64,000 bases of DNA from Candidatus Doudnabacteria bacterium (GCA_963768175.1 CAVYGQ010000001.1:190305-254304); one strand, 5' to 3'. Positions 6,237-20,444 are shown, numbered from the stretch's first letter. The notes: generated by a model from the letters alone, not told the origin. A program made the numbers and translations.

Positions 6237-6316
6237 ACTGATACCAATCCACGAATGGGATACGAATGGCATGAATTCGTAACATTCGTAGGAATTTGTA
6301 TATTAGTATCGCTTAA

Positions 6317-7417
6317 ATGAAAATTGCCATTGCGCACGATTCGTTTACCCAACTTGGCGGCGCGGAAAGAGTCGTAGATGCCTTACACGAGCTTTTCCCG
6401 AACGCGCCCGTGTTTACTTTGGTGTATGATCCAAAGTTTAAAGCAAAGTATAAAAATTGGGATATCCACACTTCGGGTCTCCAGACTTTGTTTTTGAGCC
6501 TGGGCAAGCTTCAGTATCTTTTGCCACTAATACCTTGGGCCGTAGACAATTTGGACTTCAGCGGTTTTGATCTGGTAATATCTTCCAGTTCCGGTTTTGC
6601 AAAAAATATCCGCGTCCCCAAGAATTGTGTCCACTTAAATTATTGTCATACTCCAACCAGATTTTTATGGACAGAGCCGGATTATGTAAACCGTGAAGTC
6701 CCTGTTTTAATTCGCCCCTTAGTTAAGCCGCTTTTAGGGCACATGAAAAAATGGGATTATAATGGTGCCCAGCGGGTAAACAAATTTATTGCCAATTCAA
6801 AAGAAGTTCAAGCGCGAATAAAGAAATATTACACCCGTGACAGTACCATAATTTATCCGTTTATCAATACCGAATTCTGGAATCCCGTAGTGCAACCTCC
6901 CGGGGTGCCTATAAAACGGGATTATTTTCTCCTTGCCGGTCGCTTACAAGTTTACAAGAACAACGAATTTATGATCGGAATTTTCAACGATATCGGTTTG
7001 CCGCTTCACGTTGTAGGTACCGGCAGACAGGAAAATTATTTGCGGTCAATTGCCAAACCTAACATTAAATTTTTTGGTTATGTAAGCAATGAGCGTTTGC
7101 GGGATGAATACAGCGGTGCTAAAGGGTTTATTTTCCCCCAGCTGGAAGACTTTGGCCTAATGCCCCTGGAAGCCGCGGCCTGCGGCACGGCAACATTGGC
7201 CTATGGTAAAGGGGGCTCGCTGGAAACGATTATCCCGGGAGTGACAGGAGAATTTTTTGACAGCTATGATAAAGAAAAAATCAAGCAACTCATTTTATCC
7301 TGGGACCCTCAAAAATATACAGCCGATAATTTGCGCCAACAAGCCGAAAAATTCAGCAAAGAAATATTTAAAGAAAATATAAAAAGGGAGGTTTCTAAAC
7401 TAAAGGAATTTTTATGA
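6317..7417 (+). CDS. glycosyltransferase family 4
   Basis: EDFGLMPLEAAACGTATLAYGKGGSLETI (GT4 E-x7-E region). Confidence 0.75.
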   Translation: MKIAIAHDSFTQLGGAERVVDALHELFPNAPVFTLVYDPKFKAKYKNWDIHTSGLQTLFLSLGKLQYLLPLIPWAVDNLDFSGFDLVISSSSGFAKNIRVPKNCVHLNYCHTPTRFLWTEPDYVNREVPVLIRPLVKPLLGHMKKWDYNGAQRVNKFIANSKEVQARIKKYYTRDSTIIYPFINTEFWNPVVQPPGVPIKRDYFLLAGRLQVYKNNEFMIGIFNDIGLPLHVVGTGRQENYLRSIAKPNIKFFGYVSNERLRDEYSGAKGFIFPQLEDFGLMPLEAAACGTATLAYGKGGSLETIIPGVTGEFFDSYDKEKIKQLILSWDPQKYTADNLRQQAEKFSKEIFKENIKREVSKLKEFL

Positions 7418-15027: not shown

Positions 15028-15348
15028 ATGAATATCAATATCAAAGCTACTAACACAACCCTTACGCCTTCAATAAAGAGTTACATTGAAGAAAAATTAG
15101 ATGCGATCGCAAAATTTATCCGGCCGGAAGACAAAATCCGTATAGAGATAGAGGTTGATAAAAAACGCGCCAAGGAGCCGCATTTTAGAGCGGAAATAGA
15201 TATCCAGCCGCGCGGGCATTATGCCCAAGCGCGGGGATTAGATGTTTACGCCGCACTTGACTTGGTAATCCCGAAAATTAAGGAGCAACTAACTCGCCAA
15301 AAAGACAAACAGGTTAGTTTAAGGCGCAGGCGGACCAAGATACATTAA
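15028..15348 (+). CDS. hpf: ribosome hibernation-promoting factor (RaiA/HPF short form)
   Basis: [31 protein letters not shown]... typical HPF N-terminus, ~106 aa. Confidence 0.8.
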
Positions 15349-15396
15349 GTTATAATGACCTCCTCCCGGGGCTAAAGCCAGGGGGGTCCTCCTAAA

Positions 15397-15436
15397 CAAA
15401 AAGGGGCATCCTTTTGTAAAAGGATGCCCCTTTTTT
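15397..15436. terminator. bidirectional rho-independent terminator between hpf (+) and trpR-like (-)
   Basis: aaaaaggggcatcc-ttttgtaa-aaggatgcccctttttt. Confidence 0.7.
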
Positions 15437-15449
15437 GCTTTATAATAAC

Positions 15450-15737
15450 CTATTTTGAATAATACTTTTTGAGAACTTTAGCGAATCCGCCGTTTTTATT
15501 CATCATTTCTCTTGAACCCCGCGTTACCGTGGATACGCTGACTTTTAAATTTTTGGCAATATCCCTGTGCGGCACGCCTTTTTGCAGTTGCTTGACTATT
15601 TGCCATCTCACAGCCAGGTCTTTATATTCGGCGGGGGAGAGTAGGTCAAACAACAATTCGTGCATTAAGCCTTTGCTTTTTGCTGATTTTTTAAGCAAAC
15701 CCTCAAGCTCAACGCCGTATTTATGAATATATCGCAT
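15450..15737 (-). CDS. TrpR-like DNA-binding protein (YerC/YecD family)
   Basis: LLSPAEYKDLAVRWQIVKQLQKGVPHRDIAKNLKVSVSTVTRGSREM matches the TrpR/YerC HTH; ~95 aa. Confidence 0.75.
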   Translation of the reverse strand: MRYIHKYGVELEGLLKKSAKSKGLMHELLFDLLSPAEYKDLAVRWQIVKQLQKGVPHRDIAKNLKVSVSTVTRGSREMMNKNGGFAKVLKKYYSK

Positions 15738-15747
15738 AATCGTAGCA

Positions 15748-15767
15748 TTAATGTACTAGTACATTAA
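15748..15767. promoter_or_regulatory. perfect 20-bp palindrome TTAATGTACTAGTACATTAA, TrpR-type operator (GTACTAGTAC core) overlapping the predicted -10 of the trpR-like gene
   Basis: Perfect dyad; core matches the E. coli trp operator half-site arrangement centred on ACTAGT. Confidence 0.55.
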
Positions 15768-15843
15768 CACGTTACAAATTTTGTTTCAAGAGGTTGTGGA
15801 TAACCTAGAATATGATAAAAGTCGCCAAAAAATCAGTGTATTA

Positions 15844-15857
15844 GTGTACTAGTACGC
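15844..15857. promoter_or_regulatory. second TrpR-type operator GTGTACTAGTACGC (13/14 palindromic) abutting the -35 of a plus-strand promoter
   Basis: Same GTACTAGTAC core; 3 bp upstream of TTGACA. Confidence 0.5.
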
Positions 15858-15860
15858 TAG

Positions 15861-15889
15861 TTGACAAAAGATTGGTTTAGGTGTATCAT
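15861..15889 (+). promoter_or_regulatory. sigma-70-like promoter TTGACA-17 bp-TATCAT
   Basis: Consensus -35, 17-bp spacer, near-consensus -10; ATG of leader ORF 7 nt downstream of -10. Confidence 0.5.
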
Positions 15890-15895
15890 TGGGCT

Positions 15896-15952
15896 ATGAA
15901 AGATATAAAGAATCAATTAGACAATGTTTCCTGGTGGAAGGTATTGCCCTAA
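15896..15952 (+). CDS. 18-aa leader-like peptide MKDIKNQLDNVSWWKVLP with tandem Trp codons, followed by overlapping hairpins and a T-tract (attenuator-like)
   Basis: TGG TGG at codons 13-14; downstream gtgcgcctatacgcac and cacctaagg..ccgaaggtg tttttt alternative hairpins. Confidence 0.35.
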   Translation: MKDIKNQLDNVSWWKVLP

Positions 15953-16118
15953 AGCAAAGCCCTAGTTCAGTGCGCCTATACGCACCTAAGGCTTTGCCGA
16001 AGGTGTTTTTTATTTGCACTGACACCGCTTCCTTTGGGCTTGGGCCGCTTTGCCAGCGCAAATACAAAAGGCGGACGGCAAGAGCGCTTGGGTACTCGTC
16101 CGCGAGAAAGAAGGGAAA

Positions 16119-16457
16119 ATGGTACAAGAAACTTTTTTCAGGCTTTTGCTAGAACTCCTTAGCAAATTTCTGAAACAGATCAGGTATAACCAGGAAAGGT
16201 CCAGGTCTGGATGCACAGGTGAAAATACCGCAACAAACTTCGTCGCGGCTCTGGAAAGGCTTGCGGCCGATCATCAGGTGACAGGGATAACTGTATGTGT
16301 AGCGACTGGAGACGGGCAGATTCAGTTTGCAGTTAATCCATACGCTTTCGACCCATTTTGCATACAGGTAGATGCCTGTGGTCTTGCTTTCGCCCAAATC
16401 TTTGACAAGTGCGATGCCCATGTAAGAATGAGAGAAAACAGATCAAGCCTGTTTTGA
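16119..16457 (+). CDS. hypothetical 112-aa protein in GC-rich island (same frame as the next ORF; possible gene fragment)
   Basis: SD gaagggaaa before ATG; GC-rich codon usage unlike host; followed by the palindrome ggcggcggaaatatataaatttccgccgcc. Confidence 0.25.
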   Translation: MVQETFFRLLLELLSKFLKQIRYNQERSRSGCTGENTATNFVAALERLAADHQVTGITVCVATGDGQIQFAVNPYAFDPFCIQVDACGLAFAQIFDKCDAHVRMRENRSSLF

Positions 16458-16640
16458 AATGGCAAGGTCTTGGCGGCGGAAATATATAAATTTCCGCCGC
16501 CAGAAAATAATTTAATTAGCTTTGTTCTGGTGATTGTTTGTTGATAAAAAATGCGGCCGCATTTTATACTAACAGCCACCAGCACAAATTCCAAGTTGGG
16601 GTACAAGCGGCTGGGCTTGCCCAAACAGACCGGAGGGTCT

Positions 16641-16907
16641 ATGTCAACACAATCGTGGTTTCATGCGACTTTTAGCGTTAGAGAAAAACTCGGCCCCGCC
16701 CCAGAAGGGGCAGATGGCTGGGTCAGCAATATCGTGGACGGGGTTCTGCATCTGGTATTGAGCTACCAAGGTGGAAACGTAGGCACAAGGCACTTTGGCC
16801 GGATCCTAGCGACTCAAGCGGACAAGTTTCTTGATCGTAACGGCCAATCCGACAACGACCCCTTCCTTCCCGCTGGAGGCGGTTTTCAGCCTCAGGGGGG
16901 ATTCTGA
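16641..16907 (+). CDS. hypothetical 88-aa protein in GC-rich island
   Basis: SD ggaggg 4 nt before ATG; followed by the hairpin ggaggcgaaatacattttcgcctcc. Confidence 0.25.
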   Translation: MSTQSWFHATFSVREKLGPAPEGADGWVSNIVDGVLHLVLSYQGGNVGTRHFGRILATQADKFLDRNGQSDNDPFLPAGGGFQPQGGF

Positions 16908-17272
16908 AACACCGTTGGCCGGCTGTCGCAAAACCATGGCAGTGGCTTTTCCGCCCACAACGGGCAGCGTTGCCACCTGCCACAACCCGGGAGGCGAAAT
17001 ACATTTTCGCCTCCTCCCACCTACTTGACAATCTTTATCAATTTGCTAAAATAATATAAATGATTAAATTAACACAAAATTTCTGGTTTTATTTTACGCC
17101 GGGCGTTGAGCTTGGAAATTTTGAGTTGATTAACGATGATTTAAAACCTTAAAGTACTTGGATACATATCAACTTAAGACTCCCGATCTCGACGCGAGAC
17201 GGGATTTTTTGTTTGTCCACGCGAGTGTTTGCGGACAAACCGGCATCAATATCTGATAGGGGGATATCATAA

Positions 17273-17467
17273 ATGGCAAACTGCAAATGCGGAGCCGAAC
17301 GTGAACCAAGTGGGGTCTGCTCAGACCCCAAATGTTATCTGGATTGCCCACCTTTCCCTCTGGCTGAAACTTTGAGGCCGAAGGAGGCGGGGTTCAGAGT
17401 CACAGACGAAACCATGCTTGCTGCTTGGCTTGCCGCAACAAAAGAGAATCAAGTCTGGCCAAAATAG
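17273..17467 (+). CDS. hypothetical 64-aa Cys-rich protein (CKCG...GVCSDPKCYLDCPP)
   Basis: Strong SD tagggggatatcataa-ATG; six Cys in the first 26 residues; preceded by hairpin + T-tract at 17172-17205. Confidence 0.3.
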   Translation: MANCKCGAEREPSGVCSDPKCYLDCPPFPLAETLRPKEAGFRVTDETMLAAWLAATKENQVWPK

Positions 17468-17651
17468 AGCATCGGCGGGGAGAAAGGTACGAAAGACATC
17501 AACCCTCATACCACTCCCCGCAACAACCCTATTTTTCGTCCAAAAAGGGCTTTTTTATTTTGCCTAACTCTGTTATAATAAATACTAATGACAAAAATTT
17601 AAAAAATAATAAAAATGACAAAAATATTGAATCCGCCATTTTTGTTCAATT

Positions 17652-20444
17652 TTGTCATTCATGTCATTTTTGCTCATTAACCTTATGTCTTTTTTAACAA
17701 ACTTTTTTAGCGGCGACAAAAATCCTTTGGAAAAATATTCCAAACAGCTGGATTTGGTCAATCAATATAAAGATGAAGTTGCGGGGCTCTCCCAAGAAGC
17801 GATGAAAGAAGAGATCGCAAATTTTAGGACGGAAATTGCCAAACTGGAAACTGATAAAGAAATTTTCGCCCGGCTTAAAGAAATCGCGCCGAGGGTTTTT
17901 GCGCTAGTACGAGAAGCCGCGAAAAGATCCATCTCCCAATTCCACTACGACGTTCAGGTAGCCGGCGGTTTTGCGCTGGCTGAGGGAAAAATCGCGGAAA
18001 TGAAGACCGGTGAAGGTAAGACTTTAGCCGCGACTTTGCCACTAGTGCTTTACGCTTTGGCAGGCAAAGGCTCGCATTTAGTTACAGTTAACGACTATTT
18101 GGCCCGTTGGCAGGCCAGCTTAATGGGGCAGATTTATCATTATTTGGGACTTTCTGTTGCTTCCATTCAGCACGAGGCGTCATTTTTATACGATCCCGAA
18201 TATAAACCCGAGCAGGAAGAAATAGATAAGTTGCAAGGTGAAACCCAAGGTTTGGTTTTAGATGTTAAGCACATGCGGCCAATTTCCAGAAGAGAAGCTT
18301 ACGCGGCGGATATTACCTACGGCACCAATAACGAATTCGGTTTTGATTATTTGCGCGATAATATGGTGCAAAACATCAACCAGCTTGTCCAGCGGGATTT
18401 ATTTTACGCGATTGTGGACGAGGTGGACTCAATTCTTATTGATGAAGCGCGCACGCCTTTAATCATCAGCATGCCGGATACCGAGCCGACCAGCCAATAT
18501 TACGATTTTGCCCGCATGGTTGACCGTTTGGAAGAAGAAAAAGATTACACCGTGGATGAAAAGCATAAAGCCGCAAGCTTGACGGACGAAGGCATAAACA
18601 AAATAGAGGCCGTTTTAAAAATTCCGAATATTTACGACACGTCCAAAGGTGTAACCACCATCCACCATATTGAGCAGGCTGTGCGCGCCCGTGGCCTGTT
18701 TAAGAAAGACCGCGATTATGTGGTGCGCGAAGGGGAAATTATTATTGTGGACGAATTCACCGGGCGGTTAATGTTTGGCCGCCGATACAGTGAGGGCTTG
18801 CATCAGGCCATTGAAGCCAAGGAAGGCGTAAAAATCCAGGCAGAAAGCAAGACCTTGGCCACCATCACTTTCCAGAATTTGTTTAGATTGTATAAAAAAC
18901 TTTCCGGTATGACCGGTACGGCCAAAACCGAGGAAGAAGAATTTTTCAAAATTTACCAGCTTACCGTTGAACAAATCCCTACCAACAAGCCGATGATCCG
19001 GGAAGACAGTCCGGATGTGGTTTATAAAACCGAAACCGCCAAGTTTAACGCTATTGCCCGGGAAATAAAAGAGAGGCACAAAAAAGGGCAGCCGATACTA
19101 ATAGGCACAGTAAGCATCGCCAAAAACGAAATGCTGGCCGAGGTGCTAAAAAAAGAGGGCTTGCAGTTTGAACTCTTAAACGCCAAAAACCACGAACGCG
19201 AAGCGCACATTATTTCCCAGGCCGGCCGCTTGGGGCAAATTACCTTGGCAACCAATATTGCCGGGCGCGGCGTAGACATTATTTTGGGCGGCAACCCTCC
19301 GGACCTTGAGGAACAGAAGGCCGTAATCCAGGCCGGAGGACTTCACATTTTGGGCACGGAACGGCACGAATCCCGCCGCATAGACAACCAGTTAAGGGGC
19401 CGCAGTGGGCGCCAGGGCGACCCGGGTTCTTCCCAATTTTTTGTTTCTATGGAAGATGATTTAATGCGCCTGTTCGGCGGCGAACGGATGAAATCGCTAA
19501 TGACGACTTTGGGCTTACCAGATGAACAGCCTATAGAAGCCAAAATGGTTTCGCGCAGTATTGAATCTGCCCAAAAGAAAATAGAAGGCCTAAACTTTGA
19601 TACCAGAAAACACGTTTTGGAATTTGACGACGTTTTAAACCACCAGCGCAACCATATTTACAAAAAGCGACGTGTATATTTAGGAATTGAATCGATTAAG
19701 CAGCTGGAAAAGAAAACCGATGATAACGAAGGTGAATCGGAAGAAATTAAAGACAAACAAATTGACCTTAAAACCGAAATTCTTGGCTTAGTTCGTAACG
19801 AACTTACCGAATTAGTAGAGTTTAATTTAAATGTAGTGGATGAAAACGGCAACGAACAACGAGATTGGAATAATTTGTTTAAAGCGGCAAATACTATAAT
19901 TCCAGTAACGCCGGAGTTGCAAAAAAGGGCCAAAGCGGAATACGAAAACGCCGCGGACCAGGATTTTGCCGTGGCTGACACGTTCTATAAATCCGCCGTG
20001 GATATGTGGGAAGCCAAAGAAAAGGAGCTTGGTAAAGAAATTTTTGAAGGCGCCCAGCGTTTTGTTGCCCTGCAGGCTTTGGATAATTTATGGATGGAGC
20101 ATTTGGATACCATGGACCATTTGCGCGATTCGGTCAGATTACGCGGTTACGGCCAGCGCGACCCGTTGGTGGAGTACAAAAAAGAAGGTTACCAAATGTT
20201 CCAGACTTTGCTAAAAGAAATTAACAAGCAAATTGTTAACAGCATTTTCCATATTTCGGTAAACGTCCAGCCGCAGCAGCAAAATCAGAATTTGCCAAAT
20301 AATATGATAACTAATTTATCCGATGGCTCATCAGCACCAGGCAAATCATCGTCTGACTCCAAGTACGCTAACGTCGGCCGTAACGACCGCTGTCCTTGCG
20401 GCAGCGGAAAAAAATTCAAGAAGTGCCATGGGAAAAACGTATAG
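17652..20444 (+). CDS. secA: preprotein translocase ATPase SecA (true start possibly at the ATG at 17685)
   Basis: Walker A MKTGEGKT, DEAD-like motor, C-terminal zinc finger CPCGSGKKFKKCHG. Confidence 0.95.
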   Translation: MSFMSFLLINLMSFLTNFFSGDKNPLEKYSKQLDLVNQYKDEVAGLSQEAMKEEIANFRTEIAKLETDKEIFARLKEIAPRVFALVREAAKRSISQFHYDVQVAGGFALAEGKIAEMKTGEGKTLAATLPLVLYALAGKGSHLVTVNDYLARWQASLMGQIYHYLGLSVASIQHEASFLYDPEYKPEQEEIDKLQGETQGLVLDVKHMRPISRREAYAADITYGTNNEFGFDYLRDNMVQNINQLVQRDLFYAIVDEVDSILIDEARTPLIISMPDTEPTSQYYDFARMVDRLEEEKDYTVDEKHKAASLTDEGINKIEAVLKIPNIYDTSKGVTTIHHIEQAVRARGLFKKDRDYVVREGEIIIVDEFTGRLMFGRRYSEGLHQAIEAKEGVKIQAESKTLATITFQNLFRLYKKLSGMTGTAKTEEEEFFKIYQLTVEQIPTNKPMIREDSPDVVYKTETAKFNAIAREIKERHKKGQPILIGTVSIAKNEMLAEVLKKEGLQFELLNAKNHEREAHIISQAGRLGQITLATNIAGRGVDIILGGNPPDLEEQKAVIQAGGLHILGTERHESRRIDNQLRGRSGRQGDPGSSQFFVSMEDDLMRLFGGERMKSLMTTLGLPDEQPIEAKMVSRSIESAQKKIEGLNFDTRKHVLEFDDVLNHQRNHIYKKRRVYLGIESIKQLEKKTDDNEGESEEIKDKQIDLKTEILGLVRNELTELVEFNLNVVDENGNEQRDWNNLFKAANTIIPVTPELQKRAKAEYENAADQDFAVADTFYKSAVDMWEAKEKELGKEIFEGAQRFVALQALDNLWMEHLDTMDHLRDSVRLRGYGQRDPLVEYKKEGYQMFQTLLKEINKQIVNSIFHISVNVQPQQQNQNLPNNMITNLSDGSSAPGKSSSDSKYANVGRNDRCPCGSGKKFKKCHGKNV

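Follow-up and report, generated by a model that had tools for sequence, protein, structure and literature searches.

What does a tryptophan switch control when no tryptophan gene lies behind it? The question is raised by a 64,000-nucleotide (nt) stretch of DNA (hereafter, the window) from a Candidate Phyla Radiation (CPR) bacterium near Candidatus Doudnabacteria, the label carried by the named homologues of its TrpR repressor. CPR bacteria (Patescibacteria) are usually portrayed with minimal regulation and no amino-acid biosynthesis. In the window, the genes murC, murB, hpf and trpR are followed by a gap of about 1.9 kb (the island) and by secA; trpR lies on the minus strand, and the plus strand holds almost all of the remaining genes. 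A first-pass annotation had proposed that trpR and the adjacent DNA form a complete tryptophan-responsive module (repressor, operators and attenuator) without trp genes. This proposal is supported by 14 related loci, three of which carry serK-like and trpB2 genes. We consider it probable that the locus combines a two-layer tryptophan switch with an aromatic switch, both using classical ribosome-mediated attenuation and now driving lineage-specific small genes.

The anatomy of the locus was compared across relatives. Searches identified 103 TrpR homologues, mainly in Doudnabacteria and other Patescibacteria, and a scan of one genome per species, with a TrpR alignment as query, yielded 70 loci (cited by their L numbers). 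The order murB-hpf-trpR-gap-secA is retained in 16 of the 70, with a gap of 0.3–4.6 kb. BLASTN of the island against the syntenic loci restricted conservation to separate blocks (Table 1). The bodies of the open reading frames (ORFs) between these blocks gave zero alignment, even against genomes with 92% identical SecA.

The TrpR-family repressor, its operators and the tandem-tryptophan leader

Judging from its sequence, the trpR product is a member of the PF01371 family (65.3 bits, cut-off 27; E 5.4e-18) and not a proven TrpR equivalog, with 48.3 bits against the stricter NCBIfam model (TIGR01321, cut-off 67.25). The earlier designation as a TrpR/YerC-family protein holds for TrpR and fails for YerC/YecD (TIGR02531, 20.8 bits, under the cut-off of 42.2). 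A phmmer alignment to the E. coli TrpR structure sequences (1TRO, 1TRR and others) retained the equivalents of R54, T81, T83, R84, G85 and S86, which we take to be the residues that hold the corepressor or contact the DNA. The aligned segments read RWQIV versus RVRIV and STVTRGS versus ATITRGS, and the corepressor- and DNA-contact positions are invariant in 30 relatives. Two changes from the E. coli protein are T44 to S and S88 to E.

Two candidate operators (O1 and O2) lie upstream of trpR, where a 20-bp palindrome and a second near-palindrome beside a -35 hexamer had been correctly reported. The near-palindrome, GTGTACTAGTACGC (15844–15857), is within O2, which adjoins the -35 of a plus-strand promoter (P1). 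O1 overlaps the -10 and start region of the putative trpR promoter. The core GTACTAGTAC has only two exact copies in the window, both upstream of trpR; with up to one mismatch there are three sites against 0.36 expected, a number reached by none of 100 shuffles. Furthermore, O2 and the E. coli trp operator, whose sequence was verified, have the 9-mer CTAGTACGC in common, and the O1/O2 pair was found in 13 related loci. Palindromic, CTAG-containing operators near regulated promoters, as expected of the TrpR family, are therefore present in the window.

The comparison of the first attenuator (attenuator 1) used 15 loci, the window and 14 related loci in which the leader recurs together with the operators, the promoter and the three helices. 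P1 was confirmed as the TTGACA-17-TATCAT promoter described previously. In the 15 loci an ATG lies 6–9 nt 3' of the -10, leaving no room for a Shine-Dalgarno sequence, which suggests that the leader mRNA is leaderless. The 18-codon ORF that starts there, with its adjacent TGG TGG codons, was found as first described. The Trp codons are adjacent (WW) in 11 loci, separated by one residue (W-x-W) in two and reduced to a single W in two (L002 and L013, each minus one Trp codon). The pair falls at codons 11–15 in 13 of the 15 loci, the other residues drift and the ORF varies from 16 to 33 codons. Thus, a putative leader ORF with clustered Trp codons of the trpL type is kept in relatives. This conservation removes the concern, voiced in the first-pass annotation, that the WW pair had arisen by chance; at the genome's Trp usage (1.25%) the chance of WW in an 18-residue peptide is approximately 0.003.

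The leader is followed by two hairpins and a T run, whose mutually exclusive arrangement had been recognised from the start: GTGCG..CGCAC (15970–15985) and CACCTAAGG..CCGAAGGTG (15983–16005) overlap and precede TTTTTT. The elements keep the same order across the loci (Trp codons, GGCTTTGC as region 1, GCAAAGCC as region 2, terminator and U-tract), and in no locus do more than a few nt separate the Trp codons from the start of region 1. The 5' arm and loop of the terminator repeat GGCTTTGC (region 3), so that region 2 is able to pair with either copy. In L006 all three regions covary, with GGACTTTGC in regions 1 and 3 and AAAGTCC in region 2. Such alternative helices (1:2, 2:3 and 3:4), the last with a U-tract behind it, and a region 1 placed where a stalled ribosome would mask it are the structural signature of trpL-type leaders.

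Column-wise pair counts were replaced by per-sequence energy tests, the MAFFT alignment of attenuator 1 being too ragged for them. Mean energies over the 15 loci were -11.5 kcal/mol for 1:2, -14.8 for 3:4 and -9.5 for 2:3; non-cognate 2:3 pairs averaged -7.9 (p 0.005) and shuffled ones -5.8 kcal/mol (p 4e-7). The z-score of the whole leader was -2.8. Folding also bore out the alternative structures suspected in 15953–16015: a ribosome footprint at the second Trp codon makes the window sequence fold into the 2:3 antiterminator, which the GTGCG/CGCAC hairpin caps, and a footprint at the stop codon yields the 3:4 terminator.

The operators and their surroundings vary among relatives. In Nomurabacteria/Paceibacterota-type loci (L021, L023, L028, L029, L034, L041, L050 and L058; approximately 6290–6380), the operator ATGTACTAGTACAT is found 3' of trpR, across the -10 (TACTAT or TATCAT) of the next gene's promoter, which indicates that the TrpR site is conserved well past Doudnabacteria. 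In L006, L007 and L018, GCACTAGTGC replaces GTACTAGTAC in O2, a symmetric change on both sides of the CTAG core that may point to altered TrpR specificity; O1 is unrecognisable in these loci. Extra exact copies of GTACTAGTAC inside the islands of L009, L011 and L014 (positions 748, 654 and 1097; that of L011 just 5' of the serK-like gene) suggest further internal TrpR-controlled promoters. L002 carries between trpR and O1 an insertion of approximately 270 nt with terminal inverted repeats (TTAGAACCTATTTTAAAAAT...; gap positions 1–300) that looks like a miniature transposable element. We also identified a DnaA-box-like 9-mer (TTATCCACA) with five copies in the window (790+, 15795-, 20840+, 31112- and 32897+) against 0.54 expected. 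Of 73 loci, 48 contain it, most of them at the matching place beside trpR, either before the gene or right after it, ahead of the next promoter. A -35-like hexamer nearly always follows within a few nt, and the 9-mer looks like a promoter-proximal element that Patescibacteria have in common.

The aromatic leader

A second promoter (P2) precedes a second leader ORF, with a run of Phe, Trp and Tyr codons and an ATG 7 nt 3' of the -10; this ORF is also likely to be leaderless. Its frame is kept in 11 loci: the aromatic run (FWFYF, FSFYFYF, FWNFFYFYF, FWYFFYFF and others) absorbs every difference in length, each of 6 or 12 nt. The chance of five consecutive aromatic residues in a 30-mer is approximately 3e-4. 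The sequence CAAAATTTCTGG (codons Q-N-F-W) pairs with CCAGAAATTTTG in a 16-bp 1:2 helix in which 90.9% of cells are paired. The second strand of this helix and its flanks pair alternatively with the 5' arm of the terminator to form a long antiterminator. The latter is paired in 87.6% of cells versus 27–47% in slid controls, contains seven pairs with compensatory changes (for example, GTTGAG/CTCAAC to GCTGAG/CTCAGC) and has a score that none of 500 shuffles reached. Furthermore, footprint-masked folds of attenuator 2 switch as predicted in nearly all loci, and the z-score of the whole leader is -4.3. An aromatic-codon leader with a conserved frame and a covarying antiterminator/terminator alternative are features of aroR/pheL-type attenuators.

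The terminator of attenuator 2 had been listed previously as the hairpin following a 64-residue ORF (orf64). It actually lies 5' of orf64 and had gone unrecognised as part of an attenuator; the strong hairpins described behind the other two short ORFs (orf112 and orf88) do exist (Table 1). We also considered leader 2 as a SecM-like arrest peptide for secA and rejected the idea. The peptide is too short to exit the ribosome tunnel, secA has its own promoter 3' of the hairpin, and the covarying terminator and antiterminator, together with a 3-deoxy-D-arabino-heptulosonate 7-phosphate (DAHP) synthase gene downstream in two genomes, contradict it.

Cargo of the switches in relatives and in the window

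Three relatives (L007, L008 and L011) have behind attenuator 1 a gene for a 133-residue ParB-fold SerK-like protein (NF053625, 6.7e-12) and then one for a TrpB2-type enzyme (NF009057, 711 bits, 2.7e-214). In two others (L006 and L018), the gene behind attenuator 2 encodes a DAHP synthase that has a ferredoxin-like regulatory domain (NF006421, 490 bits, 2.2e-147). Magasanikbacteria and other groups have trpR-trpB2-serK as a single same-strand operon, and further groups have a canonical trpB after trpR. This linkage across the superphylum ties TrpR to tryptophan salvage and settles how the module in the window is to be read. The SerK-like ParB-fold protein, which matches an archaeal ADP-dependent serine kinase, always adjoins TrpB2 (L007, 2913–3311 and 1607–2899; also L011, L008, L024, L025, L056 and L065). 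TrpB2 enzymes use O-phosphoserine, which a SerK-like kinase partner fits, and the pair suggests a two-gene route from serine and indole to tryptophan via O-phosphoserine.

In the window, only orf112 and orf88 lie behind attenuator 1, in place of a gene for tryptophan synthesis, and only orf64 behind attenuator 2, in place of an aromatic-pathway gene. When the SerK-like, TrpB2 and DAHP synthase sequences of the relatives were searched against the window (tblastn), no remnant was detected and the island gave nothing better than E ~1; a decayed operon was accordingly rejected as the cargo. Among the cargoes suggested earlier, the cassette of small proteins is the one that the data favour, and a non-coding RNA found no match in Rfam. 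In L004, L012 and L017 a TrpR-controlled promoter drives a small ORF without an attenuator, which makes the small proteins look like genuine TrpR targets. Furthermore, 10 of the 12 loci without trpB2 retain the paired Trp codons and all of the helices, suggesting that the sensors are still in use.

The three short ORFs of the first-pass annotation exist, the first two in one frame. No homologues of orf112 were found among 5.8 billion proteins, and its in-frame hexamer score is inside the range of real genes and clearly the best of the frames. By contrast with this orphan, orf88 has four intact homologues with a conserved DPFLPxAGG tail; its fold is predicted to be an SH3/Tudor/KOW-like barrel, which is uninformative on function. 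The database search with orf64 returned only the protein itself, and its hexamer score (-0.20) is not convincing for a coding sequence. Its position is occupied in relatives by unrelated small ORFs with a Shine-Dalgarno sequence and 3–5 Cys codons, or by DAHP synthase. The three ORFs and three antisense ORFs had no match in Pfam, NCBIfam, PADLOC or PHROG, and profile-profile comparison of the cassette proteins revealed weak links, the best (73% probability) between two families. A public gene call on an identical Logan contig lists, for the island, orf64 and one antisense ORF. It misses both leader ORFs, orf112 and orf88 and places the antisense ORF over orf88, so that the locus is mis-annotated. 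We rejected this antisense ORF (16723–17031; public 93-residue call at 16723–17004, minus strand), which has a hexamer score of -0.47 and overlaps a gene with homologues.

Each of the first two ORFs is preceded by a copy of a motif of approximately 65 nt, composed of CCAGCRC, AAAnnnACA, a variable strand of 4–8 nt, CAAG, GYGCTGG, CTTG and, lastly, a strand complementary to the variable one. The Shine-Dalgarno sequence and ATG come 5–15 nt after the motif. The covariance model of the motif (R1) scored 55.8 bits (E 1.4e-13) on copy 1 and 49.2 bits (E 1.3e-11) on copy 2. With some 17 copies in relatives, the confident instances (E < 1e-4) number approximately 19, none of them outside the trpR-secA gap; the rest of the window and the 12-kb flanks surrounding 63 loci gave no match to the model. 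In a hand-made alignment of 17 instances, the S1 helix is nearly invariant and S2 varies in sequence with its complementarity kept; in this same alignment, cognate S2 pairs averaged -11.2 versus -8.4 kcal/mol for non-cognate ones (p 1e-4). The fold of single sequences is unremarkable (z approximately -0.6). S1 and S2 could form a pseudoknot or, alternatively, a hairpin whose loop pairs upstream. A metagenome scan returned 80 loci of which none matched the covariance model, the pseudoknot pattern used being too loose. Rfam had no match in 15900–17600 at the gathering score and only spurious hairpins in 15300–17700 at E up to 10; the whole-window scan at the gathering score found only a tRNA, outside the island. 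These searches covered the 16.0–17.5 kb for which a non-coding RNA had been suggested earlier.

Between the two cassettes lies a conserved promoter-like site whose predicted start is where motif copy 2 begins. The island ends in a block kept directly 5' of secA in L002, L003, L005, L006 and L018, a conservation that marks the boundary. The block gives secA its own upstream hairpin and extended -10, which places the gene outside the attenuated unit. An AT-rich stretch 5' of secA (17585–17675) contains ATGACAAAAAT twice in direct orientation and the inverted versions TTTTGTCAT and ATGTCATTTTT, and these repeats may be the binding site of a secA regulator. On the other side of trpR, a GC-rich segment (ctcctcccggggctaaagccaggggggtcctcc; 15353–15440) lies 3' of hpf, with a 17-bp bidirectional terminator-like hairpin (15398–15435) common to the hpf side and the convergent trpR.

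Table 1. Coordinates of the features of the trpR-secA region, in positions of the window.
Feature	Position	Strand	Details
trpR, TrpR-family repressor, 95 aa	15450–15737	minus	Pfam PF01371
Conserved block (BLASTN)	15740–16075		control region and leader
Operator O1, perfect 20-bp palindrome TTAATGTACTAGTACATTAA	15748–15767		core GTACTAGTAC at 15753–15762
Putative trpR promoter, TTGAAA-17 nt-TAATGT	15789–15784, 15766–15761	minus	read by eye; below promoter-scan threshold
DnaA-box-like 9-mer TTATCCACA	15795–15803	minus	5 nt 5' of putative trpR -35
Operator O2	15841–15860		core GTACTAGTAC at 15846–15855; TTAG and CTAG flanks, 8-bp spacing
Promoter P1, TTGACA-17-TATCAT	15861–15889	plus	11/12 matches; conserved in all related loci
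Leader ORF 1 (trpL-like), MKDIKNQLDNVSWWKVLP, 18 codons	15896–15952	plus	TGG TGG at 15932–15937
Attenuator 1	15940–16011	plus	region 1 15940–15947; region 2 15954–15965; region 3 15986–15997
Attenuator 1 terminator	15982–16006	plus	U-tract 16006–16011
Pseudoknot-like motif, copy 1	16050–16118	plus	S1 16053–59/16084–91; S2 16071–77/16097–16103; then Shine-Dalgarno
orf112, orphan, cassette 1	16119–16457	plus	hexamer score 0.151
Hairpin 3' of orf112	16472–16501	plus	-25.1 kcal/mol; z -6.7; no U-tract
Conserved block (BLASTN)	16521–16590		short
Promoter-like TTGATA-18-TATACT (16541–16570) enclosing small hairpin AAAATGCGGCCGCATTTT	16521–16575	plus	kept in L002, L013, L072
Pseudoknot-like motif, copy 2	16576–16640	plus	S1 16579–83/16610–14; S2 16596–16600/16620–24
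orf88, small conserved protein, cassette 2	16641–16907	plus	four homologues
Hairpin 3' of orf88	16990–17014	plus	-18.8 kcal/mol; z -6.0
Conserved block (BLASTN)	17025–17223		strong; best conserved DNA in whole island
Promoter P2, TTGACA-16-TAAAAT, TG extension	17025–17052	plus	11/12 matches; conserved in 10 related loci
Leader ORF 2, MIKLTQNFWFYFTPGVELGNFELINDDLKP, 30 codons	17060–17152	plus	Phe-Trp-Phe-Tyr-Phe run at 17081–17095
Attenuator 2	17071–17210	plus	region 1 17071–17086; region 2 17112–17127
Attenuator 2 antiterminator arms	17103–17130, 17167–17194	plus	covariation
Attenuator 2 terminator, cccgatctcgacgcgagacggg and T-tract	17182–17203	plus	U-tract 17205–17210
orf64, Cys-rich orphan	17273–17467	plus	3' of attenuator 2
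Conserved block (BLASTN)	17470–17579		immediately 5' of secA
Pre-secA hairpin GCGGGGAG..CTCCCCGC (17475–17521), T-rich stretch, extended -10 TGTTATAAT (17571–17579)	17475–17579	plus	z -5.1

Mechanism, alternatives and known systems

The mechanism we propose assigns DNA binding by TrpR, the transcription starts, ribosome stalling and the roles of the small proteins from sequence features. Trp-bound TrpR would occupy O1 and O2 and repress both divergent promoters, as homology and the position of the sites suggest. O1 would cover the promoter of trpR itself, and the 8-bp-spaced NTAG repeats of O2 would reach into the P1 -35. The P1 mRNA is predicted to start at the ATG of leader 1 or 0–3 nt from it. 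When charged tRNA-Trp is scarce, the ribosome would stall on the two Trp codons and cover region 1, allowing regions 2 and 3 to pair and block the terminator. When Trp is plentiful, a ribosome at the stop codon (15950) would cover region 2, and the 3:4 helix and U-tract would end transcription at approximately 16011. Read-through would yield the orf112 and orf88 cassettes, each with its pseudoknot-like motif, Shine-Dalgarno sequence and closing hairpin. P2 would likewise give a leaderless mRNA in which the Phe-Trp-Phe-Tyr-Phe run works alike, gating entry into orf64. Historically, the switches presumably controlled SerK-like and TrpB2 proteins and DAHP synthase, as in sister genomes, enzymes that are absent from the window locus. 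The small proteins may be starvation-induced effectors or regulators.

Several observations weigh against this reading. In 7 of the 14 loci folded, masking region 1 does not keep the thermodynamic fold from favouring the terminator, so that the switch must be kinetic and co-transcriptional, as in E. coli, and terminator 1 of the window has a 2-nt internal mismatch that makes it weaker than those of relatives. The promoter-like site at 16541–16570 could uncouple orf88 from attenuator 1. The hairpins behind orf112 and orf88 have no U-tracts and may not mark the transcript ends. Homologues are missing for two of the three small ORFs (orf112 and orf64), the latter also being without a coding signal. 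Finally, the window covers 64 kb of a genome of approximately 949 kb, and trpB2 or a DAHP synthase gene may sit elsewhere.

A bolder form of the proposal, which we regard as rather doubtful, is that, once the biosynthetic genes were gone, TrpR and both attenuators were re-used as a starvation sensor that drives fast-turnover small proteins, with the pseudoknot as a new class of cis-regulatory RNA and the Cys-rich ORF acting on the circuit. If so, the pseudoknot would be a riboswitch, or a 5' element that binds a protein or stabilises the transcript, and would add a layer of control. The Cys-rich product, possibly zinc-binding, could then be, for example, an anti-repressor such as anti-TRAP in Bacillus.

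Alternatively, the orphaned attenuators could act chiefly in trans, through their leader peptides or terminated leader RNAs, with the downstream small ORFs secondary. Both leaders and their helices and promoters have been retained after the biosynthetic cargo was lost, the segment with P2 and attenuator 2 is the best conserved of the island, and a trans-acting attenuator RNA (rnTrpL) has been described (PMC6614838). However, no complementarity to a target came to light, although none was looked for, the cis-acting helices and regulatory codons fully account for the conserved positions, and an ORF with a Shine-Dalgarno sequence stands behind both terminators in nearly every locus. We think this alternative unlikely; as an extra function it is compatible with the two-switch model.

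An equally unlikely possibility is that the modules are leftovers from the loss of serK-trpB2 and DAHP synthase, kept only for autoregulation of trpR via O1, with the small ORFs as filler. The orphan status of orf112 and orf64, the missing coding signal of the latter, the wholly different cargo of genomes with 92% identical SecA and the loss of one of the two Trp codons in L002 and L013 are consistent with such a relic. Yet paired Trp codons and all three helices persist in 10 of the 12 loci without trpB2, and attenuator 2, which is irrelevant to trpR autoregulation, is still the most conserved block. The cassettes do not resemble filler either: the orf88 homologues are intact and have conserved motifs, the design of motif, Shine-Dalgarno sequence and ATG is kept in every cassette and the hexamer score of orf112 is gene-like.

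An origin of the island as a foreign or decayed insert, whether pseudogenised trpB2, serK or DAHP synthase, a cassette of phage or defence genes or a long non-coding RNA, is very improbable. Few genes are called there (in the public call, orf64 and the antisense ORF) and the GC content is slightly raised (0.483 versus a window mean of 0.433). Nevertheless, 11% of 1.5-kb windows equal or exceed this value, which makes the island no outlier and corrects the first impression of a conspicuously GC-rich segment at 16.0–17.5 kb. The tblastn, PADLOC, PHROG and Rfam searches described above, the last at either threshold, also argue against such an origin, as do the conserved murB-hpf-trpR-gap-secA frame and the syntenic regulatory blocks. 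Least credible of all is a chance WW ORF whose hairpins merely terminate a short TrpR-controlled transcript without ribosome sensing: the peptide is just 18 residues long and has no Shine-Dalgarno sequence, but its Trp codons are in frame at codons 11–15 in 13 of 15 loci among variable residues, the ATG is invariably 6–9 nt from the -10, the start of region 1 is always only a few nt from the Trp codons, region 2 is able to pair with both regions 1 and 3, and the prior chance of WW is as low as calculated above.

The two-switch model attributes to one CPR lineage the full E. coli logic of repressor plus attenuator, with near-identical operator words, and a multivalent aromatic attenuator in addition. 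Our literature search found no paper on TrpR, tryptophan or aromatic attenuators in CPR bacteria. The relatives form a natural series, with the same switches on SerK-like/TrpB2 and DAHP synthase genes or on orphan small proteins, and provide a case for the fate of sensors after pathway loss. Furthermore, the locus nominates a few unknown proteins and one RNA motif for the amino-acid-starvation response of episymbiotic bacteria.

Both switches are mechanistically textbook; the differences lie in the phylum, in the apparently leaderless leaders and, above all, in the cargo, which, like the pseudoknot motif, has no known counterpart. The E. coli trp operon also combines repression by a TrpR-family protein with attenuation in series. 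Its operators likewise consist of GTACTAGT / CTAG words and 8-bp-spaced CTAG-like repeats, with the 9-mer CTAGTACGC of trpO in common, and its leader carries a pair of neighbouring Trp codons ahead of the same alternative helices (1:2, 2:3 and 3:4) and a U-tract. Unlike that operon, the window has an apparently leaderless leader mRNA with no Shine-Dalgarno sequence, an O2 placed 5' of the -35 and reaching into it instead of covering the -10, a divergent trpR with a common control region, and small ORFs (serK-trpB2 in relatives) in place of trpEDCBA, all in a CPR bacterium. In Bacillus subtilis, anti-TRAP (rtpA) is a small, Cys-rich, zinc-binding protein induced by uncharged tRNA-Trp via a Trp-codon leader (rtpLP). 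The small ORFs with 3–5 Cys after attenuator 2 are positioned like it. They have no sequence similarity to anti-TRAP, which acts on TRAP, a protein absent here, and whose control combines a T-box with translational coupling.

The trpRBA operon of Chlamydia trachomatis is a case of TrpR-controlled indole salvage (PMC7755916). It too belongs to a host-dependent organism with a reduced genome and links TrpR to a salvage beta subunit instead of a full pathway, as do the trpR-trpB2-serK and trpR-trpB operons of Patescibacteria. In contrast, Chlamydia has TrpBA and an additional iron-dependent intergenic repressor, whereas the relatives examined here use TrpB2 with a SerK-like kinase and classical ribosome attenuation, and the window locus has lost the enzyme genes. 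For the aromatic switch, the closest parallel is the aroR leader of Corynebacterium glutamicum, whose Phe-Tyr-Phe codons upstream of aroF mediate ribosome-dependent attenuation of DAHP synthase (Neshat et al., 2014, as summarised in PMC11802643). According to that summary, it is a mixed aromatic-codon leader ahead of DAHP synthase, like attenuator 2 in L006 and L018; by comparison with the leader as summarised, the run here has 5–9 aromatic codons, includes Trp in most loci and precedes a 64-residue Cys-rich orphan in the window. Lastly, the rnTrpL and peTrpL products of the Trp attenuator of Sinorhizobium meliloti act in trans (PMC6614838). They show that attenuator products may matter beyond the adjacent gene and offer a precedent for a retained orphan attenuator, with the difference that rnTrpL still precedes trpE(G).

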